DNA of 14,460 nt, taken from a virus (lineage: Duplodnaviria; Heunggongvirae; Uroviricota; Caudoviricetes). A program made the translations under genes and the position numbers. The DNA lies in the IMG/VR virus record IMGVR_UViG_2645727821_000004, positions 1 to 14,460 of that record; one strand, given 5' to 3'. The notes under the pieces are model-generated. The model worked only from the letters and a program-made list of their open reading frames with translations, made no database searches and was not told the origin of the DNA. Positions 439 through 14,460 of this stretch are shown piece after piece. The stretch's first letter is position 1; every line of letters starts with the position of its first letter.

Positions 439-491
439 GGGCGGCAGAGCAGTCACGGAGTAAAACTGATACCGCCAAACGTCACCAGAAA
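439..491 (-). ncRNA. dicF: DicF small RNA (53 nt), Hfq-dependent ftsZ-targeting sRNA of the dicB operon
   Basis: Minus-strand sequence TTTCTGGTGACGTTTGGCGGTATCAGTTTTACTCCGTGACTGCTCTGCCGCCC matches the DicF sequence as I recall it, followed by TTTTT (plus 434-438). No ORF on that strand; dicB follows. Confidence 0.8.
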
Positions 492-1037
492 ATTGATAAC
501 AGAGGGCGTTGCAGCGGGGTTGTCACTTAAGCGTATGGTCAACCTGACAACCCGGTGTTCTCAACGGGGAAGGAATAACCCCGCCATACTTACCGTCGCG
601 CCATTTCGCGGAGTGCCACAACCGGAAGCGCACGGTCGAATTAAATTTAACGACACCGTACAGAGAGACCAATTTCGCCGTGCACTTTCGCGTTATGCCC
701 TGGCTTTTCAGGGATATATCCTTTCAGTAAACTGTCAGTACCGGATTCTTATCCGTGTCCGGCGCACGACCACACGTGACAGCGTGTTGGCCTCCATTTT
801 TAACCCAGAACCTCAATGGAGGATAAAATGCCAAACAAAAAAAGAAATCCGCTTATTGAAAAACAGATTGAATGCCTGGTAAATCAACTCAAGCAATCAG
901 GGTTATTAAAAACTCATTCAGAGTTGAGGCTCACAGAATCAGCATTCGACGATAAATTAAATAATGTCCTTTATAATGGCATTATTGATTTTAATCGTTC
1001 TTTTGGTCGCCGCGGCCCTGCTGGTGTTTCCTTATAA

Positions 1038-1676
1038 TTACCAGTCAATCCAGAGCGGACCGTGTTCAGCGTAAATATAACTGTACACATCCAGATTATA
1101 TTTGTGGTCTGTTAAGAACAGGCCGCAAATACATGCCGAAGCTTCCAGGGCAGCGGCTCTGTTACTGAATAACCATGTAGCAACATTCCAGCGTTTTTCT
1201 GCATCCCAGTCTTTCTCAAGGCCTGATACCATGAAGAAACCGTTAGTGTTGCCATCAAATAATTCTGTTTCCAGATTTTTAAGCAATGCCTGATGGACTC
1301 TTGCCAGGTATTCCGCCGGAATTTCGCCACGAATTCTGATGAGATTGTCATAAACAAACATGTTCCCCGCATATGGCGATTTTTCTTTCTTGTTTTTTAA
1401 ACCAGCATCATGAGCAAACTGTTCAATTTCTTCTTCCGTTGGTTTCGTATTGATGTTTTGCGCTGTCGTTTCTGCAATTTTCTTTGCCACACTCTCTGAG
1501 TCGTGTTTATTTACAGACGCACAGAAATACAATCCGGTAAACGCATCGCGCACATTACGAGCCATATTATCAGTGTCTTTTTTCGTTACCGATTCCAATG
1601 CAAGTTCGTTCAGACGATGACGAAGTGTGTGTGCTGCAATCTCCTGGATTGAAGTAGGTAAATCTTTAAATTCCAT
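1038..1676 (-). CDS. hypothetical protein (212 aa), unknown function, in repressor-controlled leftward operon
   Basis: Track ORF 1038..1688. ATG at 1676-1674 is preferred because GAGG sits 6 nt upstream on the minus strand; the ATG at 1688 has no SD. Soluble protein, no motif I recognise. Confidence 0.55.
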   Translation of the reverse strand: MEFKDLPTSIQEIAAHTLRHRLNELALESVTKKDTDNMARNVRDAFTGLYFCASVNKHDSESVAKKIAETTAQNINTKPTEEEIEQFAHDAGLKNKKEKSPYAGNMFVYDNLIRIRGEIPAEYLARVHQALLKNLETELFDGNTNGFFMVSGLEKDWDAEKRWNVATWLFSNRAAALEASACICGLFLTDHKYNLDVYSYIYAEHGPLWIDW

Positions 1677-1687
1677 CGTCAACCTCA

Positions 1688-1840
1688 TCAGTCAGAGTTT
1701 CTTGCTAACCAGCGATGCGCGCCAGCTTCGGTTTTAAACGTTTTACTTTTGGTATACGTCATCGCGGTGAACGTGCCGTCCTGGTTGGGAAACACGCCGT
1801 ACACCAGAGATTCGTTGTTGCCAAGATCGATAGTATCCAT
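1688..1840 (-). CDS. small protein (50 aa), first gene of leftward operon; YdfA-like by position
   Basis: Track ORF 1688..1921. Internal ATG at 1840-1838 has an AGG-N5 SD and gives MDTIDLGNNESLVYGVFPNQDGTFTAMTYTKSKTFKTEAGAHRWLARNSD, matching the expected ~51-aa YdfA size. The 77-aa start at 1921 also has a GAGG SD and cannot be excluded. Confidence 0.5.
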   Translation of the reverse strand: MDTIDLGNNESLVYGVFPNQDGTFTAMTYTKSKTFKTEAGAHRWLARNSD

Positions 1841-2022
1841 GCTGACCTCATTTCCCCTTAACGCCGGGGTAGCGGAACAAAAACCTGCTGCATAGTTATT
1901 AAAGTTGAACCCTGCCGTCATGTTCTTACGCCTCGGGCTGGCTACTTAACCCCTGACCACTGCCTGGTAACTCGAAGTATTGCCCTGCGTTCTGTGGGGC
2001 GGGGTGGGTTGGCATGAAAGGA

Positions 2023-2063
2023 AGGATACCCATGGGTATTTAAAAAGTAAATACCCATGGGTA
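2023..2063 (-). promoter_or_regulatory. Leftward early promoter candidate (PL/PdicB-like) with two identical 12-bp palindromic operators
   Basis: Perfect palindrome TACCCATGGGTA at 2027-2038 and 2052-2063 (25-bp centre spacing). Minus-strand -35 TTTACT (plus 2046-2051) and -10 TATCCT (plus 2023-2028) with 17-bp spacer; the -10 overlaps operator 1. Confidence 0.5.
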
Positions 2064-2107
2064 ATTTTTTTTGATGTATCTTAACCGGTGACTGATTGTT
2101 TGGTGAG

Positions 2108-2527
2108 TTATGATGCGTTTTGTGCTTTCTTTTTACGGATTTCTTCGTAGATCATATTGTAATACTGTTTTTTCTCTTCAAGAGTTTTTAATAAGTTATC
2201 CGCTTCACTTTCTGGTAGTTCGTCTAAGAGATCTAAAAAAATACGTTGTCGTGGCGTTAGAACCCTTGTTTCATAATTGGAGGCTGTGTTCGTTGATGAT
2301 GAAACGATACCATCCATCCATCCCCGAGGTAACCCAAAGGACTCTTCTATAATCTCCACCATATCATCTGCGATCCGTTTTTTTCCTTTTTTCCCCTCTG
2401 GGTACAACATTCTTGATACATAAGAAGGCTCGCGACCGATCTTTCTGGCCACGTTAACCGCTTTACCATCGCATTTCTCATCACGAATTTTGATGAGTTG
2501 TTGTCGTCTAAATTCATATTTGTCCAT
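2108..2527 (-). CDS. Prophage immunity repressor, HTH, DicA/RacR-like; no S24 peptidase domain
   Basis: Track ORF 2108..2569 (TTG start would read through the operators); ATG at 2527-2525 preferred, 139 aa. HTH-like AVNVARKIGREPSYVSRML. C-terminus with LPESEADNLL resembles recalled DicA (ALPESEQD). Divergent from the cro-like gene across an operator-rich 100-bp region. Confidence 0.7.
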   Translation of the reverse strand: MDKYEFRRQQLIKIRDEKCDGKAVNVARKIGREPSYVSRMLYPEGKKGKKRIADDMVEIIEESFGLPRGWMDGIVSSSTNTASNYETRVLTPRQRIFLDLLDELPESEADNLLKTLEEKKQYYNMIYEEIRKKKAQNAS

Positions 2528-2548
2528 AGGTAAATAATAGATGCGATT

Positions 2549-2603
2549 ACCGCAAGGTAAACAACCCAAGGGTATTGACTTTTGTTTACCCGCAGGTATT
2601 CTT
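2549..2603 (+). promoter_or_regulatory. Rightward early promoter (PR-like) with three operator 12-mers (OR1-3 analogues)
   Basis: TACC-N4-GGTA 12-mers at 2549-2560, 2563-2574 and 2587-2598. -35 TTGACT at 2575-2580, -10 TATTCT at 2597-2602 (16-bp spacer). AAGGAG SD at 2617-2622 precedes the cro-like ATG at 2628. Confidence 0.55.
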
Positions 2604-2627
2604 TGCTGTGTTTACTAAGGAGTAGCT

Positions 2628-2909
2628 ATGGAAGAATTAAGAATATTTCTCAATTCTCTTTCGTCAGATGAACAGCGTATGTTTGCATGTGAGTGTGGTA
2701 CTAGCATCGGTTATCTAAGAAAGGCATTGAGTAAAGGTCAAGTGTTAGGGGCATCGTTATGTGTCCTTATTGAGCGAGCCAGTAATGGTGAAGTTACACG
2801 TCAGCAACTAAGGCCTTTTGATTGGATGAATATTTGGCCTGAGCTGGAAGATACCAAAACGTTAACACAACCACTTTCTAGGAGCTTGATTCATGAAAAT
2901 CAGGCATGA
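2628..2909 (+). CDS. Cro-like HTH regulator (YdaS/DicC-type)
   Basis: 93 aa with strong SD; HTH-like CECGTSIGYLRKALSKG; a ...QLRPFDW motif resembles recalled YdaS. First gene rightward of the operators. Confidence 0.65.
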   Translation: MEELRIFLNSLSSDEQRMFACECGTSIGYLRKALSKGQVLGASLCVLIERASNGEVTRQQLRPFDWMNIWPELEDTKTLTQPLSRSLIHENQA

Positions 2910-3318
2910 ACACATCCGCATGGCGATGAATGCATGGGCGCGTCCTGATGGTGAAAAAGTTCCTGCGGCTGAGATAACCAGGGCGTATTTCGAACTGGGT
3001 ATGACGTTCCCGGAACTGTACGACGACAGCCACCCAGAAGCCCTGGCGCGTAATACCCAGAAAATTTTCCGCTGGGTAGAGAAAGACACCCCTGATGCAG
3101 TTGAAAAAATTCAGGCGTTGTTACCGGCGATCGAAAAGGCAATGCCGCCTCTGCTGGTGGCCAGAATGCGCAGCCACAGTTCAGCTTATTTTCGGGAGCT
3201 GGTGGAGATGCGGGAACGACTGGTGAGAGACGCTGATGATTTTGTCGCGGTGGCAATAGCTGGCTTCAACCAGATCAACCGTGGTGGCCCGGCCGGAAAT
3301 GCTGTGGCTGTGCATTGA
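2893..3318 (+). CDS. YdaT-like protein (CII functional analogue / toxic regulator family)
   Basis: 141 aa; AGGAG SD at 2880-2884. Starts MKIRHEHI and ends ...VH, with KIQALLPAI motif, as in recalled Rac YdaT. Overlaps the cro-like gene by 17 nt. Confidence 0.65.
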   Translation: MKIRHEHIRMAMNAWARPDGEKVPAAEITRAYFELGMTFPELYDDSHPEALARNTQKIFRWVEKDTPDAVEKIQALLPAIEKAMPPLLVARMRSHSSAYFRELVEMRERLVRDADDFVAVAIAGFNQINRGGPAGNAVAVH

Positions 3319-3389
3319 TCGGCAATATTCATACCGGATCTCTTTCGGTAATACGTGATTAAAAAGATTCGGTATCTGAAGAGGTTAGT

Positions 3390-4460
3390 ATGGCTAATGC
3401 CTGGCTCAGATTATGGCATGACATGCCAAATGACCCCAAGTGGCGAACCATTGCCCGGGTGTCAGGTCAGCCAATTGCAACAGTGATGGCTGTGTATATC
3501 CACCTCCTGGTGAGCGCGTCACGAAATGTCACGCGAGGTCACGTTGATGTCACGACCGAGGATTTGGCAAGCGCGCTCGATGTGACAGAAGAGGTGATTG
3601 ATTCAATTTTGCAGGCAATGCAGGGGCGGGTTCTGAAGGGGGATCTTATCACCGGATGGGAAAAACGCCAGGTACTGAAGGAGGATAACGGTAACGTTTC
3701 GCCAACCGCAAAATCCCCGGCAGAGCGCAAGAGAGCGCAGCGGGAGAGGGAAAGGCAGCGGGAGCAAAATGGCGACTGTCACGGCGTGTCACGAAATGTC
3801 ACGCACATGTCACGACGAGTCACGACAGATAAAGATACAGATAAAGATACAGATCAAGAAGATCAAAACACTATGGTTCATGGCGAGAAAAACGCCACGA
3901 ACCTGACAGGGGATGTTCAGACCGTCAATCCTGGTCAGCCGGCAGGCACGACACCGGAAGCCGATTCAGCGTATGCGCTGAAAGCCGATTCGGGCGCTGT
4001 GCAGCAGGCGATGGTCGCCGGACCGGAGAGATCACACCAACCGCAGCAGCCTGAAGCCGATTCCGCCCTTCAGCGGGAAGCCGATCGGGTAGTCCCGGAA
4101 AACACCGGGCAGCCTGTGGGACGAGTGGATTACCCGGACGGGTTCGAACAGGTCTGGCGGGAATATCCGCTGCGTGCCGGGGCAAATCCGAAGAAATCCG
4201 CGTTCAGTGCCTGGAAGGCCAGGTTACGCGAGGGGGTGCCACCGCAGGTCATGCTGGATGGTGTGAGGCGTTACGCGAGGTACCTGGCGGCGACCGGGAA
4301 AGCGGGAACGGAATTTGTTCAGCGGGCGACAACGTTTTTTGGACCTGACCGGAATTTTGAAAACCCCTGGTTGCTCCCGACTGGCGGGACGAACAACCAG
4401 CGTTGTGTGAATCATATTTCCGAACCGGATACCGAAATTCCACCAGGTTTCAGGGGGTGA
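3390..4460 (+). CDS. Replication initiator (lambda O-like / YdaU-like) containing an internal origin
   Basis: 356 aa; GAAGAGG SD. Lies immediately upstream of the DnaC-like gene; iteron arrays and an AT-rich tract inside the coding sequence (next two features) parallel lambda ori within O. Confidence 0.7.
   Translation: MANAWLRLWHDMPNDPKWRTIARVSGQPIATVMAVYIHLLVSASRNVTRGHVDVTTEDLASALDVTEEVIDSILQAMQGRVLKGDLITGWEKRQVLKEDNGNVSPTAKSPAERKRAQRERERQREQNGDCHGVSRNVTHMSRRVTTDKDTDKDTDQEDQNTMVHGEKNATNLTGDVQTVNPGQPAGTTPEADSAYALKADSGAVQQAMVAGPERSHQPQQPEADSALQREADRVVPENTGQPVGRVDYPDGFEQVWREYPLRAGANPKKSAFSAWKARLREGVPPQVMLDGVRRYARYLAATGKAGTEFVQRATTFFGPDRNFENPWLLPTGGTNNQRCVNHISEPDTEIPPGFRG
3518..3554. repeat. 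Iteron array 1: four GTCACG repeats at 10-11 bp periodicity
   Basis: GTCACG at 3518, 3528, 3538 and 3549, read directly from the sequence. Confidence 0.7.
3778..3866. repeat. Iteron array 2 (five GTCACG repeats) plus adjacent AT-rich tandem repeats with two GATC sites; putative replication origin
   Basis: GTCACG at 3778, 3788, 3798, 3809 and 3819. Tandem AGATAAAGATAC at 3827-3838 and 3839-3850. GATC at 3852-3855 and 3861-3864. Confidence 0.65.
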
Positions 4461-4466
4461 AGGATT

Positions 4467-5213
4467 ATGAAAAATATAGCGACAGGAGGCGTTCTTGAAC
4501 GTATCCGCAAGCTGGCACCACAGCATGTAACCGCGCCGTACCGGACGGCAGAAGAGTGGCGTGAGTGGCAACTTGCGGAAGGCCAGAAACGTTGCGAGGA
4601 GATCAACCGTCAGAATCGTCAGTTGCGGGTGGAAAAAATTCTGAATCGCTCCGGTATCCAGCCGTTGCACCGCAAATGTTCGTTTGCGAATTACCGGGTG
4701 CAGAACGACGGCCAGCGATATGCGCTGAGCCAGGCAAAATCCATCGCGGACGTACTGATAACCGGATGCACAAATTTCGTGTTCAGCGGTAAGCCGGGTA
4801 CCGGAAAAAATCACCTGGCAGCCGCCATTGGTAATCATCTTCTGGAGAAAGGTCGCAGCGTGATTGTGGTCACGGTGGCTGATGTGATGCTGGCGCTACA
4901 CGGCAGCTACGACAACAAAAACTCAGGCGAAAAATTTTTGCAGGGTTTGTGTGACGTTGACCTGCTGGTTCTGGATGAGATTGGCATGCAGCGTGATACG
5001 CGCAACGAACAGGTCACACTGAACCAGATCGTCGATCGCAGAACAGCCGCGATGCGCAGTGTCGGGCTGCTGACGAACCTGAACCATACCGCAATGAGCA
5101 CCCTGCTTGGCTGGCGCGTGATGGACCGCATGACCATGAACGGTGGGCGCTGGGTGAATTTTAACTGGGAGAGCTGGCGTCCGAATGTCGGTCAGCCAGG
5201 AATTGAAAAGTAA
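4467..5213 (+). CDS. DnaC-like AAA+ helicase loader (phage replication protein P analogue, YdaV-like)
   Basis: 248 aa. Walker A GKPGTGKNHLA and Walker B LLVLDEIG. Start 7 nt after the initiator stop, with GGTGAAGGA SD. Confidence 0.85.
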   Translation: MKNIATGGVLERIRKLAPQHVTAPYRTAEEWREWQLAEGQKRCEEINRQNRQLRVEKILNRSGIQPLHRKCSFANYRVQNDGQRYALSQAKSIADVLITGCTNFVFSGKPGTGKNHLAAAIGNHLLEKGRSVIVVTVADVMLALHGSYDNKNSGEKFLQGLCDVDLLVLDEIGMQRDTRNEQVTLNQIVDRRTAAMRSVGLLTNLNHTAMSTLLGWRVMDRMTMNGGRWVNFNWESWRPNVGQPGIEK

Positions 5214-5237
5214 TTTTTATCGGGGAGAAAAAATTTA

Positions 5238-6008
5238 ATGGAAACCGTTTTAGACGCACTGAAAGCGATGGGAAAAGCCACGTCGGTAGAACTGGCTACG
5301 CGACTTGATATCAGTCGTGAAGAAGTGCTGAACGAGCTGTGGGAACTGAAAAAGGCTGGCTTCGTTGATAAAAGCGTATACACCTGGCGTGTGGCTGGCG
5401 AAGGTGAATCCGGGGTAGCCGAAGAGCAGCCAGCACAATCTGAAGCACAGGATGTGCTAACCAGGGAGGTCGAACGAAAAGTTACCGCTGACATGATGAT
5501 TGAGTTTATCAGTCAGGAGGGGGCTAAAACGTGTGAGGAGCTGGCGGGTAAGTTCGGTGTCAGTACTCGCAAGGTTGCTTCCACGCTGGCGGTAGTAACC
5601 GCAACGGGGCGGCTGGCACGCGTTAATCAGAACGGTAAATTTCGTTACTGCATACCGGGCGATAATTTACCAGCAGAGCCGAAAGCTGCATCGGTAACAG
5701 AAGCTGATGGTAAATCCTTTCCTCTGCCATCAGGTGTTGCGTTACCAGTACAGGAGGCTGCAACACAGGAAGATATTAAAACAGAAACGGCGGCGGACAT
5801 TGTGCAGTCGCTACCACCGTTTACCGAAACGCAAGCGGATGACCTGGTTTTATCATCGCTGCATATGGCAAACCGCGAGCTGCGTCGGGCGAAAAGTTAT
5901 GTCCAGAAGTGGGAGCGTGTCTGCGCCGCGCTGCGGGAGCTGAACAAGCACCGGGATATTGTTCGACTGATTGTCGATTCCTCCAGTCGTATTGTGTCGG
6001 AAAAGTGA
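5238..6008 (+). CDS. hypothetical protein with two winged-helix-like modules and an acidic linker
   Basis: 256 aa; GGGAGA SD. wHTH-like segments [28 protein letters not shown] and [29 protein letters not shown]. Confidence 0.55.
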
Positions 6009-6022
6009 TTGCCGGAGGCGCT

Positions 6023-6445
6023 ATGGCAAAAGTATTTACACAGGAAGAGCGGGAAGATGTGAAGGCTCGCATTGTGGAACTGGTACGCAGGGATGGGCGG
6101 AAAACGCGTAAACAACTGGAAAATGAAACCGGGGCGACGAGACATCTGATAGAAGTTCTGACGAAAGAGCTGGTAGCCAGTGGTGTTGTATATGGCTCAG
6201 GGTATGGAATATTTCCTTCAGAGCAGGCACGTAAGGACTGGATGAAAGCCATTGAAAAGATGTCGAAAGCAAAGTCAAAGAAACTGGCTGTGGTTGATCC
6301 TTACCTTATCTGGTCATTACCAGACGGAGAAATACGTCGTTACGACAGGCGCCTGAACATGATTTGTCACGATTGCCGGAAGAGCGAAGCTATGCAGCGT
6401 GTACTGGCTTTCTATCAGGGTAATTTTCAGGAGGCGATACTGTGA
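6023..6445 (+). CDS. hypothetical winged-helix-like protein (141 aa)
   Basis: ATG at 6023 with GGAGG SD at 6014-6018, inside track ORF 5909..6445 whose GTG start overlaps the upstream gene. Confidence 0.5.
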   Translation: MAKVFTQEEREDVKARIVELVRRDGRKTRKQLENETGATRHLIEVLTKELVASGVVYGSGYGIFPSEQARKDWMKAIEKMSKAKSKKLAVVDPYLIWSLPDGEIRRYDRRLNMICHDCRKSEAMQRVLAFYQGNFQEAIL

Positions 6446-6502
6446 GTGAAATTAGCTATCAGGCTTCAATTACCGCTGGCATTCGCATCAAAGGAGAGGA
6501 GC

Positions 6503-6859
6503 ATGGAAATAAAACCAGAAGATGAGTTAAGCAATATCGTTTTATTTCCGATAAAAGAGGATGACCCTCGTAATCAGGTTAATTTTCTTTATGAGCCATC
6601 GGAAAGACCATATTGCCATCACACTTCTGTCCGGGTTGACGAAAAAGAGCGTCAGGTCCGCTGTAAAATCTGCGGTGCAGTTGTGGAACCATTTGACTGG
6701 ATGCTCTCTGTGGCGAAAAGAGAAACCAGGATGGCAGATGATGTAAAACAATTGCGCCAGGAGGAACGGGAAAGGCGAAAAAATATAGAAAAGCTAATTC
6801 AGATTGAGCGCAACGTGAAAGCGCGGATACGCAGGGCGACAAAAGCCCGAACTGAATAA
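6503..6859 (+). CDS. hypothetical zinc-ribbon protein (118 aa)
   Basis: ATG at 6503 with AAAGGAGAGGAG SD, inside track ORF 6446..6859. Candidate zinc ribbon CHH ... CKICG; basic coiled C-terminus. Confidence 0.5.
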   Translation: MEIKPEDELSNIVLFPIKEDDPRNQVNFLYEPSERPYCHHTSVRVDEKERQVRCKICGAVVEPFDWMLSVAKRETRMADDVKQLRQEERERRKNIEKLIQIERNVKARIRRATKARTE

Positions 6860-6955
6860 TTAAATTTGGCACAGAACATAAAATTAATCCTTAACCGGAG
6901 GGATTTATGCACCCTCAGAACATCAGGAGGCCACCCGAAAAGGCGGTAGTGAAAA

Positions 6956-7363
6956 ATGGCTGAATTAACCAAAGAGCAATTAATCGAAGAAGTTAAATTA
7001 AAAATAGCGATTGCGAAATGCCATCCCAATTCAGGCGTGGCACGAGTAGAGGGTGAGTTATTCAAAATTGCAGTGACATCGCTGGAAGCAGAACCGATAG
7101 CGTGGGAATGCGGTGAAAACATAATCCTGTTTAATCCTGACACAGTTGAAGCATACGCAAAACGTGCGGAGATATCACCTAAACCACTATTCGCCGCCCC
7201 ACCTGTGCTGGTAGTGCCTGAAGGGCTTGTTAAAGCGGTACGCTTTTATGAACAGGTAAAGTGTGAGAATCCGCCAGCCGAAACCGGAGCATGGAAAGAC
7301 GCTGTTGACTGGGTACTCGAAGAAGCTTGCCAGGCTGTAAACATTGGCATCAAAGGAGGGTGA
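6956..7363 (+). CDS. hypothetical phage protein (135 aa), DUF550-like N-terminal module
   Basis: N-terminus LTKEQLIEEVKLKIAIAK ... VTSLEAE is paralogous to the N-terminus of the 7656..8471 product. Confidence 0.5.
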   Translation: MAELTKEQLIEEVKLKIAIAKCHPNSGVARVEGELFKIAVTSLEAEPIAWECGENIILFNPDTVEAYAKRAEISPKPLFAAPPVLVVPEGLVKAVRFYEQVKCENPPAETGAWKDAVDWVLEEACQAVNIGIKGG

Positions 7364-7364
7364 T

Positions 7365-7652
7365 ATGGCAACTTTGCAGGAATTAATCGACCTGACGCCA
7401 GAACAGGAAAAAGCGTGGAATCGCCTTGTGAAGGCTGTAAAGGATTTCAGGGCAGCCGGAGGAAAGTTTTATAGCGTCCTGGACACGCTGAGCGCATACA
7501 ACGGCGAGCACGTTGCCAGCATTGATAACGATAAGGGCTACCACACTGCAAGCGTCTATATGCCTAGCATTGATGCGCCAGGGCTAACCAGTTGGGCTGA
7601 TGATTGGCACGGCATCACGCTGAAAGATGGCGTTGAAGTGGATGAGGACTAA
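7365..7652 (+). CDS. hypothetical protein (95 aa)
   Basis: ATG at 7365 with AAAGGAGGG SD at 7352-7360, inside track ORF 7344..7652 (TTG start). Confidence 0.5.
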   Translation: MATLQELIDLTPEQEKAWNRLVKAVKDFRAAGGKFYSVLDTLSAYNGEHVASIDNDKGYHTASVYMPSIDAPGLTSWADDWHGITLKDGVEVDED

Positions 7653-7655
7653 CAC

Positions 7656-8471
7656 ATGACTACTTTTACCGACAAAGAACTGATTAAAGAAATCAAAGAG
7701 CGCATAGGCAGCCTGGACGTTCGAGACAATATTGAGCGCCGGTCGTATGAAATTGCACTGGCATCGCTGGAACGCGAACAGATTCGCCACGAGCATGCCA
7801 AATGGTCTGACTCCACATTTGGCTGCGTTGGCCCCATTGGTCCACTGAAACACCTCTCAAAAGAGGCACTGGAAGCCGCAGCCGAACCAGACGATCTTAG
7901 CGAGTGGGCTGATATGCAGTTTCTGTTGTGGGATGCACAGCGCCGTGCTGGCATCAGCGATGCTGAAATTAACGTTGCTATGGAAGATAAATTGAAGATC
8001 AACATGGAGCGCCAGTGGCCTGAGCCAAAAGATGGTGAGCCTCGCTTGCACATTAAAGAACCCGGCAACTCTCCGGTAATTCCGGATGGTTTATCCACGG
8101 TATGCGCTGAGGCTTATCAGGTTGTAGGAGTTATGGCAGATGCGCTTGGTGTATTCGGTGATGCAGCAGTACAGAAAGTTCTGGATAACCTGTCACAGCA
8201 AAAACTTGTTCACAGAGATGTGCTGCCGTTCTCGCTTCCGGTAACTCCGGATGGTTGGATAAGCTGTAGTGATCGAATGCCTGAAAAGGGCCAGAACGTG
8301 CTTATTTCGGTGAATTTCGATAGCTCTCTGGTTGAACCGCTAATATGCTCCGCACGCTATACCGGAAGCACCTTTCGGCGCGGAGATGCAACGATTAAGC
8401 CGGGTAATGGTATTGAGCAAGCAACTCACTGGATGCCGCTACCGGAACCGCCGCAGGAGGTGAATCAATGA
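7656..8471 (+). CDS. phage protein with DUF550-like N-terminus and DUF551-like C-terminus
   Basis: 271 aa. C-terminal PDGWISCSDRMPEKGQNVLISV ... THWMPLPEPP is typical of DUF551 as I recall it. Confidence 0.6.
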   Translation: MTTFTDKELIKEIKERIGSLDVRDNIERRSYEIALASLEREQIRHEHAKWSDSTFGCVGPIGPLKHLSKEALEAAAEPDDLSEWADMQFLLWDAQRRAGISDAEINVAMEDKLKINMERQWPEPKDGEPRLHIKEPGNSPVIPDGLSTVCAEAYQVVGVMADALGVFGDAAVQKVLDNLSQQKLVHRDVLPFSLPVTPDGWISCSDRMPEKGQNVLISVNFDSSLVEPLICSARYTGSTFRRGDATIKPGNGIEQATHWMPLPEPPQEVNQ

Positions 8472-8551
8472 GCTGGCCTGAAGCGTTCACAACGGTAGGA
8501 ATTGCAATGGCGGTGGCGCTGGTGGTGTATTCTATTTGCCGCTGGGGGTAA
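8468..8551 (+). CDS. small hydrophobic peptide (27 aa, MSWPEAFTTVGIAMAVALVVYSICRWG)
   Basis: ATG overlaps the upstream stop (ATGA at 8468-8471); AGGAGG SD at 8455-8460. One predicted transmembrane helix. Below the track size cut-off. Confidence 0.4.
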   Translation: MSWPEAFTTVGIAMAVALVVYSICRWG

Positions 8552-8711
8552 GGTATTGAAAAACGCCCACACACATAAGTTGGGCACCTGAGTTGCGGGG
8601 ATAGGGAGTTAGTTAAATAGTTATACAACAATACCTGATTTTGTATTGAAGCAAGGAAGAGGTTGCCACATATTGAATCATGCACGTGTACGTCAAATGC
8701 GGGAGGTCATC

Positions 8712-8801
8712 GTGCTGGTTCTGAAATGTGCGCTGGCTATTGCGGCTGTAATGGCAATTTATTGTCTTGTTATTGTTCTTATGGATCACCTTTCTGATTG
8801 A
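8712..8801 (+). CDS. small hydrophobic peptide (29 aa, GTG start, MLVLKCALAIAAVMAIYCLVIVLMDHLSD)
   Basis: GGGAGG at 8701-8706, 5 nt before GTG at 8712; stop TGA at 8799-8801. Possible promoter TTGAAG-N17-CATATT upstream (~8648-8676). Confidence 0.3.
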   Translation: MLVLKCALAIAAVMAIYCLVIVLMDHLSD

Positions 8802-8955
8802 TTTTATATTGGCGAGGTGACGAGAGTTAAGTAGAATTGCTGCGGGTGCTTGAGGCTATCTGCCTCGGGCATGAACAGCAACGGCAGATAGATAAAAGCC
8901 CCAGTTAACATTACGCGTCCTGCAAGACGCTTAACATTAATCTGAGGCCCAATCT

Positions 8956-9153
8956 ATGCTTCACAAACGTAGGTTAGCCTCTTACGAGCCGAAAGGCAAG
9001 GAGAAGCAGGCTATGAAGCAGCAAAAGGCGATGTTAATCGCCCTGATCGTCATCTGTTTAACCGTCATAGTGACGGCACTGGTAACGAGGAAAGACCTCT
9101 GCGAGGTACGAATCCGAACCGGCCAGACGGAGGTCGCTGTCTTCACAGCTTAA
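8956..9153 (+). CDS. mok-like reading frame (in-frame N-terminal extension of hok)
   Basis: ATG at 8956 in frame with hok, as in recalled chromosomal mokC/hokC. 65-aa track ORF. Confidence 0.4.
   Translation: MLHKRRLASYEPKGKEKQAMKQQKAMLIALIVICLTVIVTALVTRKDLCEVRIRTGQTEVAVFTA
9013..9153 (+). CDS. hok: Hok/Gef-family type I toxin (HokD/RelF-like), apparently truncated by a premature stop (46 aa)
   Basis: MKQQKAMLIALIVICLTVIVTALVTRKDLCEVRIRTGQTEVAVFTA matches recalled HokD up to a TAA at 9151-9153. In-frame continuation GAA CCT GAG GAG TAA encodes EPEE-stop, the canonical Hok C-terminus. Confidence 0.8.
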   Translation: MKQQKAMLIALIVICLTVIVTALVTRKDLCEVRIRTGQTEVAVFTA

Positions 9154-9239
9154 GAACCTGAGGAGTAAGAGACCAGGCGGGGGAGAAATCCCTCGCCACC
9201 TCTGATGTGTCAGGCATCCTCAATGCACCCACACTTAAC

Positions 9240-9256
9240 CCGCTTCGGCGTTTTTT
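9240..9256 (+). terminator. putative intrinsic terminator at 3' end of hok transcript
   Basis: CGC-TTCG-GCG short stem with UUCG tetraloop, then T6 (9251-9256). Stem is short. Confidence 0.4.
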
Positions 9257-9311
9257 CGTTGATTAACTCTAGTTATCAGAGAACCGAACTTTTACTGATG
9301 GGGGCAGGGAG

Positions 9312-9704
9312 ATGAAGAAACTTGTTTTAGTTGCAGGTGTAATGATTGCAACAGTAATGTTGGGAGGGTGTGCAGCAAAGGTCGATCCTGCGTTGAAAGC
9401 AGAAGCAATGAAGCCACTAACATGTAAAGATGAAAAGCAATGTGACTTTTATTGGAAACGCGCGCAATTCTGGTTGGCTAATAATTCCGCATGGAAAATT
9501 CAAACGGCGACAGACACGCTAATTTCCACTTATAACCCCTCACCAAATAGTCCACTCCTCGCTTATCAAGTGAGTAAAATGCCAAATGAAGATGGATCCT
9601 CAAGAATTTTCATCCAGCCTTTTTGCGATAATATGTTTGGCTGTCAACCAAACCTCTATCAGGCGGTTGTTTCCTTCAAAAACTTCGTTAGAACTGGGCA
9701 GTAG
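9312..9704 (+). CDS. prophage lipoprotein (130 aa), function unknown
   Basis: Signal peptide MKKLVLVAGVMIATVMLGGC with lipobox LGGC; GGGAG SD. Confidence 0.65.
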   Translation: MKKLVLVAGVMIATVMLGGCAAKVDPALKAEAMKPLTCKDEKQCDFYWKRAQFWLANNSAWKIQTATDTLISTYNPSPNSPLLAYQVSKMPNEDGSSRIFIQPFCDNMFGCQPNLYQAVVSFKNFVRTGQ

Positions 9705-9896
9705 TGTATAGCGGGGACGGTAAATTATTAGTGAAAACGCCGTGAACCCTCACCCAATGTGAGCTAACCCCATCAAACATGACTGTGATGATTAGCATAC
9801 CCGCTTCAGCGAGTTTTGTTTTTTCCGGGAATTCTGGTTTACAATCTGCACGCCAGCCTGAACAACTGGCACCTGCTGCGCCAGCAGAGAAAACAA

Positions 9897-10169
9897 ATGG
9901 CGCACAATACCAAAAATCACAATTCTGATGCCGTTCGTGCCAGCAGGCATGGGCGGCGTTCGCGCGTATTTAAAACCGACTGGTACCAACACCCTCCATG
10001 CACTGAAGAACAGGCCGAATGGCTGATTCAGTGTTACCGCAGACACGGATACGAGATTAAGAAAGCCCTCAGCCTCGATTATCGTCACTGGATAATCTCC
10101 GTCAGGCTTCCTTACTCCGAACGCCCACCGCGTCCGTCCCGCACATTCCAGCAACGGATCTGGAGGTAA
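9897..10169 (+). CDS. small basic protein (90 aa), Rem-like by position
   Basis: ATG at 9897 inside track ORF 9816..10169. Sits immediately upstream of the YdfU-like gene as rem does in Qin. Candidate promoter TTGTTT-N18-TACAAT at 9816-9845. Confidence 0.45.
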   Translation: MAHNTKNHNSDAVRASRHGRRSRVFKTDWYQHPPCTEEQAEWLIQCYRRHGYEIKKALSLDYRHWIISVRLPYSERPPRPSRTFQQRIWR

Positions 10170-10170
10170 C

Positions 10171-11217
10171 GTGCGGGTATTACTTCGACCTGTTCTGATA
10201 CCGGAACTCGGGCTGGTGGTCCTTAAGCCCGGTCGTGAATCCATGCCGGTATTTCACAATCCTCGAGTGCTGGTGGAGCCGGAACCGAAAAGTATGTGCG
10301 GCCTGCCATCCGGAGTCGTCCCTGCCGTTCGCCAGCCGCTGGCGGAGGATAAATCATTACTGCCATTTTTCAGCGATGATCGGGTGATTCGTGCTGTTGG
10401 CGGCGCTGGGGCACTGTCTGACTGGCTGTTGCGTCATGTCAAATCCTGCCAGTGGCCTCATGGTGACTATCATCACAGTGAAATCGTCATACATCGTTAC
10501 GGTACCGGCGCGATGGTGTTGTGCTGGCACTGCGACAACCAGCTGCGTGACCAGACATCCGAATCACTCGAGCAACTTGCTCATCAAAACCTGTCAGCAT
10601 GGATGATTGACGTCATCGGTCACGCAATAAGCGGTACGCAGGAGCGTGAATTATCTCTGGCTGAATTATCCTGGTGGGCGGTCCGCAATCAGGTGGCGGA
10701 CGCGCTACCGGAAGCGGTATTACGTCGTTCGCTGGGGTTGCGTGCGGAAAAAATCCGCTCAATGTACCGTGAAAGCGACATCGTACCGGGAGAGCAGACC
10801 GCCACCAGCATACTGAAGCAGCGCACAAAAAATCTTGCGCCGCTGCCTCACGCCCACCAGCAAAACCCGCCACAGGAAGAGGCGGTGGTCAGCATTGCCG
10901 TTGATCCGGAGTCTCCGGAATCTTTCATGAGACGACCTAAACGTCGCCGTTGGGTAAAGGAGAAATATACGCGCTGGGTGAAGACACAGCCGTGTGCGTG
11001 TTGTGGTCAACCAGCCGACGATCCCCATCACCTGATTGGTCACGGTCAGGGAGGGATGGGAACAAAGGCCCACGATATTTTCACGCTACCGTTGTGCCGG
11101 GAACATCACAACGAACTTCATGCGGATCCGCTGGCGTTCGAAGAAAAGCATGGCTCTCAGGTTGATTTAATTTTTCGTTTTCTTGATCACGCCTTTGCAA
11201 CCGGCGTGCTTGGGTAA
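10171..11217 (+). CDS. YdfU-like DUF968 protein (348 aa) with HNH-like C-terminal Cys/His cluster
   Basis: GTG start 1 nt after the upstream stop; GGAGG 5 nt upstream. C-terminal CACCGQPADDPHHLIGHGQGG ... CREHHNELH. Length matches recalled YdfU (~349 aa). Confidence 0.7.
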   Translation: MRVLLRPVLIPELGLVVLKPGRESMPVFHNPRVLVEPEPKSMCGLPSGVVPAVRQPLAEDKSLLPFFSDDRVIRAVGGAGALSDWLLRHVKSCQWPHGDYHHSEIVIHRYGTGAMVLCWHCDNQLRDQTSESLEQLAHQNLSAWMIDVIGHAISGTQERELSLAELSWWAVRNQVADALPEAVLRRSLGLRAEKIRSMYRESDIVPGEQTATSILKQRTKNLAPLPHAHQQNPPQEEAVVSIAVDPESPESFMRRPKRRRWVKEKYTRWVKTQPCACCGQPADDPHHLIGHGQGGMGTKAHDIFTLPLCREHHNELHADPLAFEEKHGSQVDLIFRFLDHAFATGVLG

Positions 11218-11229
11218 AAGAGGTTACTG

Positions 11230-11592
11230 ATGCGTATAGAGCTTGTTTTGCCTTACCCGCCAACGGTGAACACCTACTGGCGACGTCGTGGCAGCACATA
11301 TTTTGTATCAAAAGCCGGTGAGCGTTATCGCCGGGATGTGGCGCTTATTGTTCGTCAGCAGCGACTGAAATTAAATCTGTCCGGTAGGCTGGCAATCCGA
11401 ATTATTGCAGAGCCACCGGATAAACGCCGCCGTGACCTGGACAATATCCTGAAAGCACCACTGGATGCGCTGATGCATGCCGGACTTCTCATAGACGACG
11501 AGCAGTTTGATGAAATTAATATAGTGCGCGGTCAGCCTGTTCCTGGTGGGCGGCTGGGCGTGAAGATTTACGAAATAATGCATGACGGGTAG
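11230..11592 (+). CDS. rusA: RusA Holliday-junction resolvase
   Basis: 120 aa. PYPPTVNTYWRRR ... DKRRRDLDNILKAPLDAL ... GGRLGVKIYEI aligns to the RusA family including the catalytic acidic cluster. AAGAGG SD. Confidence 0.85.
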   Translation: MRIELVLPYPPTVNTYWRRRGSTYFVSKAGERYRRDVALIVRQQRLKLNLSGRLAIRIIAEPPDKRRRDLDNILKAPLDALMHAGLLIDDEQFDEINIVRGQPVPGGRLGVKIYEIMHDG

Positions 11593-11600
11593 GTCCAAAA

Positions 11601-12422
11601 ATGAAACTGGAAGATTTACCGAAATACTATTCCCCAAAATCGCCAGGTCTGACTGATGCATCCGTCTCGACGTCAAAAGATGTGCTGAGCATCACTGATG
11701 TGATGGCTGCGCAGGGTATGACACAAAACCGGGCTGAGATGGGATTTTCTGCGTTCCTGGGGAAAATGGGCATCAGTATGAATGACAGGGCGCGGGCAAC
11801 AGAATTACTGGCAGATTATGCACTCAGTCGGTGCGATCGCGTGGCGGCGTTGAGAAAACTTCCGGCAGAAATAAAACCGGCAGTGATGCGTATTATGGCT
11901 TCGTACGCTTTTGAGGATTATGCCCGCAGTGCAGCGAGTAAAAAACAGTGCCCTTGTTGCGGTGGGAAAAAATTTATTGAAAGCGTAGTTTTTACAAACA
12001 AGGTCCAGTATCCGGATGGCAAGCCGCCAGTATGGGCAAAGTGTACAAAAGGCGTGTATCCGTCTTACTGGGAGGAATGGAAAAAAGTCCGGGAGGTGGT
12101 GAAAGTCTCCTGTCCAGAATGCAAAGGGAAAGGGGAGGTTTCTACGGCCTGTAAAGATTGCCGTGGACGTGGTGTTGCCATTCATCGTGAAGAGTCGGAA
12201 AAACGGGGTATGCCTGTTATCAGAGACTGCCAGCGTTGTGGTGGTCGTGGCTATGAAAGATTACCGTCGACGGAGGCATTTAATGCCATATGTGAGGTAA
12301 CAAAGCAGATAACACGCGCGTCATGGGAAAAAACTGTTAAGCAATTCTATGACACGCTGGTGATTAAGTTTGATATTGAGGAAGCATGGGCAGAGCGGCA
12401 GTTAAAAAAGGTAACCAGATAA
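11601..12422 (+). CDS. putative late-gene antiterminator Q (QuuQ/phage-82-like), with four CxxCxGxG zinc-finger-like motifs
   Basis: 273 aa. Position between rusA and a promoter/terminator pair is the Q slot. Motifs CPCCGGKK, CPECKGKG, CKDCRGRG, CQRCGGRG. Call is by position and zinc-binding character. Confidence 0.55.
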   Translation: MKLEDLPKYYSPKSPGLTDASVSTSKDVLSITDVMAAQGMTQNRAEMGFSAFLGKMGISMNDRARATELLADYALSRCDRVAALRKLPAEIKPAVMRIMASYAFEDYARSAASKKQCPCCGGKKFIESVVFTNKVQYPDGKPPVWAKCTKGVYPSYWEEWKKVREVVKVSCPECKGKGEVSTACKDCRGRGVAIHREESEKRGMPVIRDCQRCGGRGYERLPSTEAFNAICEVTKQITRASWEKTVKQFYDTLVIKFDIEEAWAERQLKKVTR

Positions 12423-12427
12423 CAATG

Positions 12428-12456
12428 TTGATTTTTCCGGAATCTGTGGTAAATTT
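12428..12456 (+). promoter_or_regulatory. candidate late promoter (PR'-like) just downstream of Q
   Basis: TTGATT at 12428-12433 with TAAATT/AAATTT 16-17 bp downstream; 6 nt after the Q stop. Confidence 0.35.
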
Positions 12457-12502
12457 ATCCTAACGATGGGCGTTTTATGCCTGACGTTAAAAGATTTTTT
12501 AC

Positions 12503-12526
12503 AACCCGCCGCCGTGCGGGTTTTTT
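12503..12526 (+). terminator. intrinsic terminator (tR'-like)
   Basis: Stem AACCCGC/GCGGGTT (12503-12509 / 12516-12522), loop CGCCGT, followed by a T-run. Confidence 0.65.
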
Positions 12527-12630
12527 GTTGGTTTAACAGGTTATAATGTATAGTGCGAAACTGCCTGTTCAGCAGAATCATTTTGTTTGTAGTAGAGTTC
12601 ACAAGTCGTCATTATCAGGCAAAGAGATTT

Positions 12631-13032
12631 ATGGTATTAAAGTATCAGCCGTCTGTTCGTTCTGTTTTAATGTGTGATTTTCGGGGAATGGTTGTTCCGG
12701 AAATAGTCAAGGCCAGGCCAGTGGTAGTAGTATCCAGAAACAGACACAACAATCAATTGGTAACAGTGGTACCAATAAGCACTACTGAACCGATCCCTCG
12801 CAGAGATTGCCATCATGAGTTATCAGAAAACCCCATTCCTGGTAATGAGCATATTACTTGCTGGGTAAAATGTGACATGTTGATGACGGTTTCATTGAGC
12901 CGACTGGATCGCATAAAAACCAGAAACTGGGAGGGGCGAAATTATATTGTTCCTATGATTGCGGAAGATGAGTTTGAGAATATTAAACGGGCGGTATTGC
13001 ACGGGATAGGGATGGCTTATCTGTATCGATAA
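12631..13032 (+). CDS. MazF/PemK-fold toxin-like protein (133 aa) with no adjacent antitoxin ORF
   Basis: By-eye parallel to MazF: CDFRG ... E..KARPVVVVSRNRHNNQLVTVVPISTT vs MazF VDFDP ... RPAVVLSPFMYNNKTGMCLCVPCTT; C-terminal ...IKRAVLHGIG vs ...KINVLIG. Perfect TATAAT at 12542-12547 upstream. Confidence 0.6.
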   Translation: MVLKYQPSVRSVLMCDFRGMVVPEIVKARPVVVVSRNRHNNQLVTVVPISTTEPIPRRDCHHELSENPIPGNEHITCWVKCDMLMTVSLSRLDRIKTRNWEGRNYIVPMIAEDEFENIKRAVLHGIGMAYLYR

Positions 13033-13067
13033 TCGAAAACGATTATCGAATTCGATATAAATTTATA

Positions 13068-13096
13068 TTGACACACATAGTGTGTTGACTGATACT
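13068..13096 (+). promoter_or_regulatory. strong sigma70-like promoter candidate with embedded inverted repeat
   Basis: TTGACA at 13068-13073, 17-bp spacer, GATACT at 13091-13096. Spacer holds ACACA-TAG-TGTGT and a second TTGAC. Confidence 0.5.
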
Positions 13097-13185
13097 GTCG
13101 CTGTACCCTGATGGGACTTGTGAGACTTCCGAACAGGAAGCCAGGAGTAGCGATAAGGTGATGACAAGCCTGCTGCCCCTGTGTA

Positions 13186-13217
13186 AAAGGCATCTTAATG
13201 GTGCCTTTGTCATTTTT
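13186..13217 (+). terminator. terminator-like hairpin 1
   Basis: Stem AAAGGCA/TGCCTTT (13186-13192 / 13202-13208), 9-nt loop, T5 at 13213-13217. Confidence 0.45.
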
Positions 13218-13228
13218 ATCAAAAGTTC

Positions 13229-13251
13229 CCCGCCATTGAGCGGGTTTTTTT
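13229..13251 (+). terminator. intrinsic terminator 2
   Basis: Stem CCCGC/GCGGG (13229-13233 / 13240-13244), loop CATTGA, T7 at 13245-13251. Confidence 0.65.
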
Positions 13252-13374
13252 ATGCCTGAAAAACGACACAGGACGTTAAACGCGCTGGTGGTTGCGAATA
13301 TCAGTTTTTCAGCTTGCTGGCTTTTCAGACAAGAGTTATTGGTATGTCACGTTAACCAGAAAAGGGAAAAAGAC

Positions 13375-13572
13375 ATGCTAAAACAGCAGGATATGACCGA
13401 AACCGCCAGAGTGGTGTTTAATGAATTAAGCGTCACCGAACCGACGACCGTCGGGGAGATTGCGCAGAATACTTACCTTTCACGCGAATGCTGCCAGTTA
13501 ATACTGACCCAGCTTGTTATGGCGGGCCTGGCAGATTATCAGTTTGGTTGTTACAGACGCCTTCCGCAGTGA
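13375..13572 (+). CDS. small winged-helix DNA-binding protein (65 aa), PapI/FaeA-like
   Basis: ATG at 13375 with AAGGGAAA SD, inside track ORF 13252..13572. ARVVFNELSVTEPTTVGEIAQNTYLSRECCQLILTQLVMAGLADYQ aligns by eye to PapI; the similarity is modest. Confidence 0.45.
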   Translation: MLKQQDMTETARVVFNELSVTEPTTVGEIAQNTYLSRECCQLILTQLVMAGLADYQFGCYRRLPQ

Positions 13573-13581
13573 AGGCTTTTT
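13559..13581 (+). terminator. intrinsic terminator overlapping the wHTH gene stop codon
   Basis: Stem GCCTTC/GAAGGC (13559-13564 / 13571-13576), loop CGCAGT, T5 at 13577-13581. Confidence 0.65.
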
Positions 13582-13722
13582 AATTTGTGGTAATGGGCGG
13601 CTGGTGGGTGTTAGCGGCACCTGCCAGCCATCTGCTCATGCGTTGGGGTCACAAGCAAACCTCAGGCCCATCTGCTTTGCGCAAAAGCGGTATGAGCCTA
13701 TCAGAGAAGCGCTTATTGATCT

Positions 13723-14460
13723 ATGGCTAATACTGTAAAAATATCCAGTTGTGAGTTAATCAACGCTGATTGCCTGGAATTTATCCAGACCTTACCGGAA
13801 AACTCTGTCGATCTGATAGTCACAGACCCGCCATACTTTAAAGTGAAACCCAACGGCTGGGACAATCAGTGGAAAGGGGACGAAGATTACCTTAAGTGGC
13901 TGGACCACTGTCTGGCCCAGTTCTGGCGGGCGTTAAAACCTGCCGGAAGCCTTTACCTGTTCTGTGGGCATCGCCTGGCATCTGATATTGAGATCATGAT
14001 GCGTGAACGTTTCAACGTGCTTAACCATATCATCTGGGCGAAGCCGTCCGGACGTTGGAATGGGTGTAATAAAGAAAGTCTGCGCGCATATTTTCCTGCC
14101 ACAGAGCGCGTTCTGTTTGCTGAACATTACCAGGGGCCATATCGCGGCAAAAGTGACGGCTATGCGGCAAAAGAAAGGGAACTCAAACAGCACATAATGG
14201 CACCGCTGATTTCGTATTTCAGGGATGCTCGTGCCGAACTGGGTATAACGGCAAAACAAATTGCCGAAGCCACAGGTAAGAAAAATATGGTTTCCCACTG
14301 GTTTGGTGCCAGTCAGTGGCAGTTGCCGAATGAGGCTGACTATCGGAAGTTACAGGCACTGTTTTCCCGTATAGCGGCAGAGAAGTTTCAGGAACAACAA
14401 CTGGAACAACCACACCACCAGCTGGTGGCATCTTATGATTCACTGAATCGCAAATATTCT
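13723..14460 (+). CDS. DNA methyltransferase, N6-adenine/N4-cytosine beta class (DPPY motif), 5' part; runs off the window end
   Basis: Open frame from ATG 13723 to window end (246 codons). LPENSVDLIVTDPPY ... AGSLYLFCG ... HIIWAKP follows the CcrM/M.HinfI-type motif order. Not in the track because it has no stop in the window. Confidence 0.8.
   Translation, partial: MANTVKISSCELINADCLEFIQTLPENSVDLIVTDPPYFKVKPNGWDNQWKGDEDYLKWLDHCLAQFWRALKPAGSLYLFCGHRLASDIEIMMRERFNVLNHIIWAKPSGRWNGCNKESLRAYFPATERVLFAEHYQGPYRGKSDGYAAKERELKQHIMAPLISYFRDARAELGITAKQIAEATGKKNMVSHWFGASQWQLPNEADYRKLQALFSRIAAEKFQEQQLEQPHHQLVASYDSLNRKYS

Follow-up and report, generated by a model that had tools for sequence, protein, structure and literature searches.

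The window analysed here is a stretch of 14,460 nucleotides, positions 1 to 14,460 of the IMG/VR virus record IMGVR_UViG_2645727821_000004, and is part of a Rac/Qin-like lambdoid prophage. Our subject is a two-part module within it, consisting of a gene for a MazF/PemK-fold toxin (12631-13032) followed by a promoter and a structured small-RNA gene (together 13068-13219), all on the plus strand. An earlier note on this DNA had described the toxin-like gene as solitary, a description that overlooked the conserved RNA gene and its promoter, and it is the relationship between these two genes that is considered below.

The mechanical open reading frame (ORF) at the toxin gene, 12553-13032, starts with GTG; homologues and RefSeq start at the ATG at 12631 (MVLKYQP...), giving a protein of 133 amino acids. 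Pfam places residues 12-95 in PemK_toxin (PF02452; 52 bits against a cut-off of 23.1, E=9.3e-14), and the protein also matches PHROG 15698, a family of unknown function, at E=1e-47. An AlphaFold (AF2) model built from 24 homologues reached a mean predicted local distance difference test (pLDDT) value of 90.9. The best Foldseek match to this model was MazF (4mzm_B; E=7e-7, template-modelling (TM) scores 0.67/0.81, probability 1.0), and among the matches listed the top 50 from the PDB were all MazF-family proteins (Staphylococcus aureus MazF, Bacillus subtilis YdcE, Escherichia coli MazF and MoxT), with TM scores of at most 0.82. Relative to MazF, a C-terminal helix extension is predicted. Six residues are invariant across 24 diverse homologues, including R29 and S50, which hhalign places on R29/T52 of E. 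coli MazF and R25/T48 of B. subtilis MazF; these are catalytic residues of MazF. As R29 and S50 are kept at these positions, the protein is likely to be an active RNase. Thus the PemK/MazF fold proposed in the earlier note is borne out by Pfam and Foldseek, and the catalytic residues that were checked have been retained.

The similarity to characterized toxins is nevertheless low at the sequence level. The NCBIfam model for MazF proper scored the protein at 15 bits against a cut-off of 120, searches of PDB sequences with the single sequence and with the family profile gave no match, and no protein family in PADLOC-DB 2.0 matched it. Instead, the toxin belongs to a small and separate YifN-like clade, comprising 804 clusters at E<=1e-10 among 1.84 billion representatives; at the Joint Genome Institute (JGI), proteins related to that of the window carry the name 'YifN (PemK superfamily)'. 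Relatives were located on 86 plasmids, and evident phage genes were lacking from the contigs of most family members that were examined (Pseudomonas, Caulobacter, Neisseria and Geobacter).

Downstream of the toxin gene is a sigma-70-type promoter, TTGACA-17-GATACT (13068-13096, +; 10 of 12 consensus matches in the promoter scan), which lies 69 nt past the toxin stop codon and has a -10 element ending 6 nt ahead of the first conserved G of the RNA. The RNA itself (13103-13219, +) is about 115 nt long and, by covariance model (CM), folding and covariation, contains four helices. P1 (13103-13117), the consensus of which is the hairpin GUUCCC-GAAA-GGGGC, is followed by a conserved single strand, UUGUGAGA in the window (13118-13125) and CUUGUGAGAC in the consensus, where it is invariant. 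A variable hairpin, P2 (13126-13140), then precedes the long stem P3 (13142-13181) with its apical loop GAUGACAA at 13160-13167; across the family this loop occurs as GAUGACAA, GAUAACAA, GAUUACAA or GACGACAA. In the consensus a GUGAA stretch separates P3 from P4, a GC-rich terminator hairpin (13186-13208) recognized by the terminator scan, and the RNA ends in a conserved tail, GUCAUUUUUAU (13209-13219; consensus UUUGUC(A/G)UUU). The minimum-free-energy fold of the window RNA (-42 kcal/mol, z = -4.1) agrees with the consensus helices, and the covariance model matches 13102-13215 with 93.4 bits (E=4e-17). A pseudoknot, CUUGU/ACAAG, and a loop-tail pairing, AUGACAAG/CUUUGUCAU, are each conceivable, the segments being 94-95% complementary with a few sequences that break them; the columns are invariant, and the loop could pair with CUUGU or with the UUUGUCAU tail.

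The RNA first came to our attention through opposite-strand pseudo-ORFs close behind the toxin gene that shared motifs among E. coli, Xenorhabdus and Pseudomonas. These seemingly conserved minus-strand ORFs are translations of the conserved RNA and not genes. On the plus strand, a coding function was rejected on the grounds that the ORF starting at the loop ATG may be as short as 7 codons or exceed 30, and that P2 varies in length by non-multiples of three; ARAGORN found no tRNA. Neither in the window nor in 20 related loci did the RNA reach the gathering score of any Rfam 15 family, and at E<=10 over 12400-13400 only weak, terminator-driven chance matches were returned. Nor is the RNA a repeat array: Tandem Repeats Finder (TRF) detected only a palindromic array of 13 nt x 2.5 at 13025-13057, and the RNA is single-copy and free of tandem repeats. 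The possibility that the second promoter and terminator simply duplicate the late promoter PR' and its terminator tR' was also discarded, as the same RNA stands behind toxins in loci that have neither Q nor evident phage genes.

The strength of the association between the two genes became clear from a broad sample of toxin loci, drawn from 24 E. coli genomes, from Enterobacter, Xenorhabdus and Geobacter, and from 80 species-representative genomes picked by protein similarity alone. A covariance model trained on 41 diverse copies located the RNA on the toxin's strand, directly 3' of the toxin gene, in all but one of 89 toxin loci (88 of 89), with one match in each. The sole exception (L071) sits on a contig that stops 107 nt past the toxin gene. 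No further match at E<=1 was obtained in the 564 kb searched. The paired loci come from Enterobacterales, Pseudomonas, Caulobacter, Neisseria, Geobacter and others, and include prophages and some plasmids. Among 85 distinct sequences in the model-based alignment, standard pairs filled 97.9% of base-pair cells, compared with 81.5% after shuffling and 38-55% when the pairing partners were slid, and both-sided changes were seen at 20 of the 25 base pairs (276 cells); none of 500 shuffles reached any of these measures. RNAalifold recovered the same helices from a plain MAFFT alignment. The promoter is also fixed in position. Requiring at least four of six matches per hexamer and a spacer of 16-18, we found it in 55 of 85 distinct loci, with the -10 ending exactly 6 nt before the conserved G in 54 of them (0.6% in controls); in Caulobacter and some Pseudomonas it falls within the end of the toxin reading frame. 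We therefore regard the association of toxin and RNA as real, and with very little doubt.

No protein partner shows any comparable conservation. Eight small ORFs of 26-66 amino acids, on both strands between Q and the winged-helix gene (12405-13259), gave no antitoxin-type Pfam match, their other matches being far under the cut-off. RefSeq annotates no antitoxin beside the protein of about 97-98% identity in E. coli genomes, and clustering of neighbours across 90 loci revealed no protein family common to different genera, only synteny at the level of the genus. The statement of the earlier note that no MazE/PemI-like ORF adjoins the toxin thus holds for the window and for every relative examined. 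An adjacent co-transcribed protein antitoxin, the hallmark of a type II system, is accordingly absent here, and what adjoins the toxin is the hallmark of type III, a co-inherited non-coding RNA gene.

The two genes also differ in how often they occur alone. A scan of viral contigs for the RNA core returned 42 stretches, 40 of which were true RNAs: 25 had a toxin directly upstream, one had a toxin pseudogene (L135, in which the RNA next to the pseudogene is intact), one was cut by the contig end and 13 were RNA-only, that is, 13 of the 39 viral contigs that could be judged (RNA-only contigs include L105, L109, L110, L125, L127, L130, L128, L129, L133 and L134). Complete E. coli genomes gave a similar picture, with toxin and RNA together in 24 of 37 and RNA alone in 13 of 37. 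In the core clade, no intact toxin was seen without the RNA. One RNA-only type, represented by prophage L003, aligns with the window at 12500-12578 and 13076-13140, and in the pairwise alignment the intervening 497 bp (12579-13075), with the toxin 5' leader and coding sequence, the downstream hairpin and the -35 hexamer of the promoter for the RNA, are missing; most simply, this absence would represent a toxin deletion that left the RNA behind. Prophages of the L004 type have the RNA joined to the PR' leader, with the RNA's terminator serving as tR', and free-standing RNA-only copies with promoters of their own occur in phage tail-gene regions (L129, L133 and L134). Persistence of the RNA without the toxin, but not of the core-clade toxin without the RNA, is the pattern expected of an antidote, and the toxin-less copies may be anti-toxin or anti-defence genes. 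A further orphan RNA (84 bits) was noticed in E. coli A34 (L006, 2989-3098), in another prophage, between a Panacea-domain gene and a parDE pair.

The association reaches beyond the core clade. RNA was kept beside the toxin (37% identity) of a Vibrio tectivirus-like element (24.6 bits), beside the metagenomic homologues P0058 and P0039 (33-38 bits) and beside a Fluviibacter plasmid toxin (65 bits). A more divergent branch consists of the K-12 yifN pseudogene together with intact genes on IncF and other Enterobacterales plasmids. Here the RNA is shorter, with a P1-like hairpin, CNGCGAAG, one covarying terminator hairpin, a UUUGC tail and its own TTGACA-17 promoter; P3 and the GAUGACAA loop are lacking. 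In K-12 itself (L136, NC_000913.3 3959905-3960460), as on plasmids L147 (IncF/IncX1) and L149 (IncFII), where toxin identity is 32%, the conserved promoter and shorter hairpin RNA follow the gene, and there looks to be an unannotated small-RNA gene between ppiC and yifN. We had considered that the K-12 hairpin might be a decayed remnant, but the same short RNA and promoter follow the intact plasmid genes. On the E. coli plasmid pSD5 (L146), an RNA-like match of 25.6 bits (1990-2127, minus strand) overlaps, on the opposite strand, the 3' end of a toxin gene of 40% identity beside IS26, and may be a rearranged or antisense variant. Upstream ORFs were seen in two distant loci: an unannotated ORF of 207 amino acids in L139/L140 (1374-1997) and one of 126 amino acids in L148 (1118-1498) each end 2-3 nt before the toxin start; L139 is without the RNA and L148 also has it. 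These ORFs could encode protein partners in side branches.

How, then, should the module be interpreted? On balance we lean towards reading 12631-13219 as a YifN-clade MazF/PemK-fold toxin gene with a separately transcribed RNA antitoxin, for which binding of the type III kind would be the likeliest mode. Both the toxicity of the protein and its neutralization by the RNA are properties that we infer from sequence. In such a system, the RNA would be made constitutively from its near-consensus promoter and would hold the toxin inactive, binding it directly through the invariant single strands (CUUGUGAGAC, the GAUGACAA loop and the UUUGUCAU tail) as a pseudo-substrate; the loop contains ACA and could itself serve in this way. 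A fall in RNA supply, for example when an infecting phage shuts off transcription or when the element is lost, would then free the toxin. In a lysogen the RNA promoter would be on and the toxin gene silent behind tR', and as the module is a moron in the leader of the late operon, Q-modified polymerase would also read the toxin late in lytic growth. The module might serve to defend the lysogen, to stabilize the prophage or to aid lytic growth. Our preference for direct protein binding comes from the analogy to type III systems, AvcID among them, and from elimination, as base-pairing with the toxin mRNA leaves no family-wide signal. The suggestion that the antitoxin might be something other than a protein, one of three options raised in the earlier note, has therefore gained strong circumstantial support from the independently promoted RNA.

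Several observations weigh against this interpretation. Orphan RNAs are common and some are fused to the PR' leader, so the RNA may have a job of its own. The layout is unlike that of the type III systems known, with the RNA downstream, non-repetitive and under its own promoter. The conserved single strands never vary, so covariation cannot reveal their contacts, and placement behind tR' could by itself keep the toxin silent in a prophage. Finally, the RNA was not detected beside two homologues of 39-40% identity (P0055 and P0056), one of which has an abutting upstream ORF of 207 amino acids.

If the RNA does have its own role, the two genes might form a ribonucleoprotein or processing pair, in which the protein, as a dedicated nuclease or chaperone, matures, loads or is guided by the RNA, and the RNA or the complex is the effector, perhaps as a regulator of host or phage transcripts. 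The same co-occurrence evidence would serve this explanation as well as it serves an antitoxin, the frequent orphan RNAs, which have their own promoters in phage tail-gene regions or in some cases are fused to the PR' leader, suggest an RNA that can act without the protein, and the invariant single strands could be seed or target sites. We nonetheless think such a pair unlikely, since the asymmetry described above is that of an antidote, the catalytic-type residues of the toxin family are invariant, and the family is also found on plasmids, where toxin-antitoxin modules are common. An RNA antitoxin might also act in the manner of type I systems, by pairing with the toxin mRNA and blocking its translation or stability. 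In the window, 12599-12607 (UCACAAGUC, 24 nt upstream of the ATG) is perfectly complementary over 9 nt to 13115-13123 of the RNA, the Enterobacter 5' untranslated region (UTR) of L007 pairs over 12 nt (-25 to -14) with the RNA loop, 8 nt pair in Neisseria, and TGTCAT is present in 6.4% of 5' UTRs, compared with 1% of controls. Across the family, however, RNAduplex z-scores average -0.2 with 5% under -2, and complementarity of at least 7 nt is found for the junction in 6% of loci (4.9% in controls) and for the loop in 3.6% (10% in controls). Different lineages would moreover have to use different segments of the RNA, and a soluble enzyme of 133 amino acids is unlike the small membrane peptides of type I, all of which makes pairing as the general mode decidedly improbable; the complementarities may instead provide a lineage-specific extra control.

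The remaining explanations dispense with an RNA antitoxin altogether. The earlier note had allowed that the fold might be repurposed as a phage RNase, which it may be, though for most members examined the contig shows no evident phage genes. In its fullest form this explanation has a solitary, late RNase expressed under Q antitermination, the RNA being a 3' UTR, a terminator or an unrelated small RNA. The gene does stand directly behind Q/tR' with three Q types and behind Mor in a Mu-like prophage, the phage phiP27 has another nuclease gene at the same site, and stx genes hold the same position in Stx phages. But most members examined, in contigs that lack Q or tR', still keep the RNA, which has a fixed promoter of its own and a structure conserved well beyond the needs of a terminator, and we give this explanation very little credence. 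Even less probable, in our judgement, is a protein antitoxin encoded elsewhere, be it the winged-helix protein (65 amino acids; 13375-13572), a host MazE or an unrecognized small ORF. Reverse-order type II systems exist, a gene for a small DNA-binding protein lies within 350 nt downstream, and the distant loci L139 and L148 have an upstream ORF abutting the toxin. Against this, the winged-helix gene, which we rejected as a reverse-order antitoxin, is present in phiP27 and many other toxin-less phages and is missing from the loci of Enterobacter and Xenorhabdus and from the chromosomal ones; none of the small ORFs is conserved, and the annotation of a related E. coli prophage, which matches the gene content of the window, includes no MazE, PemI or AbrB-type product. 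An antitoxin located elsewhere, also entertained previously, thus finds no support.

An RNA antitoxin for a MazF-type toxin would have clear parallels among known systems. In type III systems, an endoRNase toxin is accompanied by an adjacent non-coding RNA antitoxin (PMC8860590). Like ToxIN, CptIN and TenpIN, the module places the gene for a protein endoribonuclease, its activity here being predicted, beside a non-coding RNA gene on mobile elements. ToxN has a Kid/MazF-like fold. The differences are also considerable: in those systems tandem repeats of 34-36 nt lie upstream and share a promoter with the toxin via a leaky terminator, whereas here a single four-helix RNA of about 115 nt lies downstream with its own promoter, and the window toxin falls in Pfam PemK_toxin and not in the ToxN/AbiQ families. 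Phages can evade type III systems by means of antitoxin-like RNAs of their own, as with the pseudo-ToxI of PhiTE, and such RNAs parallel the toxin-less copies that we observed. The RNA of the AvcID system, AvcI, is a single non-repetitive small RNA, and in this respect AvcID resembles the module, since an RNA antitoxin need not be a repeat array. The system has been assigned to type III (PMC10511110). The toxin, AvcD, is a deoxycytidylate deaminase and not an RNase, and the RNA and layout of AvcID are unrelated to those of the module.

The toxin itself is closer to MazEF and PemIK (Kis-Kid), with which it shares the fold, the Pfam family and the positions of the catalytic Arg and Thr/Ser, but the module has no MazE/PemI gene, the sequence similarity is low and the C-terminal helix is additional. 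K-12 yifN (pseudogene b3777) shows 29% identity over its N-terminal half and likewise has a promoter and a short hairpin RNA downstream; it differs in being broken by stop codons and in the absence of P3 and the GAUGACAA loop from its RNA, and no function for yifN was reported in the papers searched. A structured RNA in the Rfam collection, the pemK RNA motif (Weinberg 2017), is reported from the 5' UTRs of pemK genes in Firmicutes; it is likewise tied to PemK-family genes, but by its 5' UTR position, and the RNA described here has no Rfam match. Type I systems have a small hydrophobic peptide as toxin and an RNA that pairs with the mRNA, and neither is true of the module family-wide. A last parallel concerns position. 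Stx phages make a short PR' transcript, StxS, and Stx-type morons share the slot between the late antiterminator and terminator and the lysis genes; here the cargo is a toxin-RNA pair that also occurs outside phages, and in L004-type prophages the RNA replaces the short PR' transcript.

The pairing of this toxin with this RNA was not found in Rfam 15, PADLOC-DB 2.0 or the papers searched, which is not proof that it is unpublished, and strings of the RNA sequence were absent from searchable papers. We tentatively suggest that it may constitute an uncatalogued class of toxin-antitoxin or defence system, in which a MazF-family RNase is neutralized by a non-repetitive four-helix RNA, distributed in Proteobacteria, prophages and plasmids, with phages carrying the toxin-less RNA as an antidote. 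Orphan PemK/MazF genes are routinely labelled as type II toxins whose partner is missing, and the RefSeq name 'type II toxin-antitoxin system PemK/MazF family toxin' is applied to this clade without the defining feature of that type; here the partner appears to be an RNA, which is invisible to gene callers. If the RNA is an antitoxin, control of the type III kind would extend to the best-studied family of RNase toxins, there would be a new class of structured RNA of about 115 nt with covarying helices and invariant loops, and a widespread unannotated small-RNA gene in Pseudomonas, Caulobacter, Neisseria and E. coli prophages would be explained. Toxin-less RNA genes carried by phages would then be candidates for an anti-defence function. 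With only two parts in about 640 bp, the module offers a compact system in which to ask how a MazF-type active site is shut off by an RNA.

Upstream of the module in the window, a RusA gene (11230-11592) is followed by the Q antiterminator (11601-12422, +; 273 amino acids), in which Pfam identifies a DnaJ-type CXXCXGXG zinc finger, and a DNA methyltransferase gene runs past the right end of the window. Directly 3' of Q is a putative late promoter, TTGATT-16-TAAATT (12428-12455, +), which was read from the sequence, scored under the threshold of the promoter scan and resembles lambda PR'; an identical sequence stands behind the same 273-amino-acid Q type in L004. The tR'-like intrinsic terminator T1 follows (12503-12528, +; hairpin 12503-12522 plus T-run), and BLAST similarity to 20 E. 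coli genomes begins here, at about 12505. On the right, the module is limited by a terminator of the phage backbone, T3 (13229-13250, +; terminator scan and alignment), which is 82% identical to T1 and from which onward phages of the phiP27 type align to the window. The module is thus placed between T1 upstream and the terminators P4 and T3 downstream. The slot, bounded by Q/tR' on one side and by the winged-helix and methyltransferase genes on the other, is a hotspot for morons; in phiP27 itself (L144, 189-1418 against window 12505-13229), a GIY-YIG nuclease gene, flanked by a T1/T3-type terminator, occupies it. The three Q types that precede the module, in E. coli, Enterobacter and Xenorhabdus prophages, are unrelated to one another, and the other toxin loci vary in context, with Mor/gp27, methyltransferase or LysR neighbours. 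Two short sequences, TTTTATGCCTGA (12473/13248) and GACGTTAAA (12483/13272), are each duplicated in the window.

Closer to the toxin gene are two signals to which attention had been drawn previously. A perfect TATAAT (12542-12547, +) has no good -35 and was not among the calls of the promoter scan; it could be a weak toxin promoter, but the segment that holds it (12527-12578) also aligns in the toxin-less prophage L003. At the other end, a palindrome overlaps the toxin stop codon (13026-13049, +), with arms at 13026-13035 and 13040-13049 and a loop of 4 nt; as RNA it would fold with -14 kcal/mol (z = -3.3). The upstream terminator, the TATAAT and the palindrome noted earlier are thus all present, although the palindrome arms measure 10 bp and not 9, and neither the TATAAT nor the palindrome holds up as a relevant flanking signal, the former occurring without the toxin and the latter, which is identical in the aligned E. 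coli relative L001, being absent from the Enterobacter (L007) and Xenorhabdus (L011) relatives. The palindrome belongs to the array detected by TRF, a set of nested ATCGA repeats (13-nt unit ATCGATAATCGAA) between the toxin stop and the RNA promoter, and these nested palindromes could be an operator or a 3' stabilizing hairpin. Elsewhere in the window, Rfam identified DicF RNA on the minus strand (439-490) and, on the plus strand, hok/sok (8844-9153), a type I module, so that the toxin module would be the second RNA-controlled toxin system carried there.

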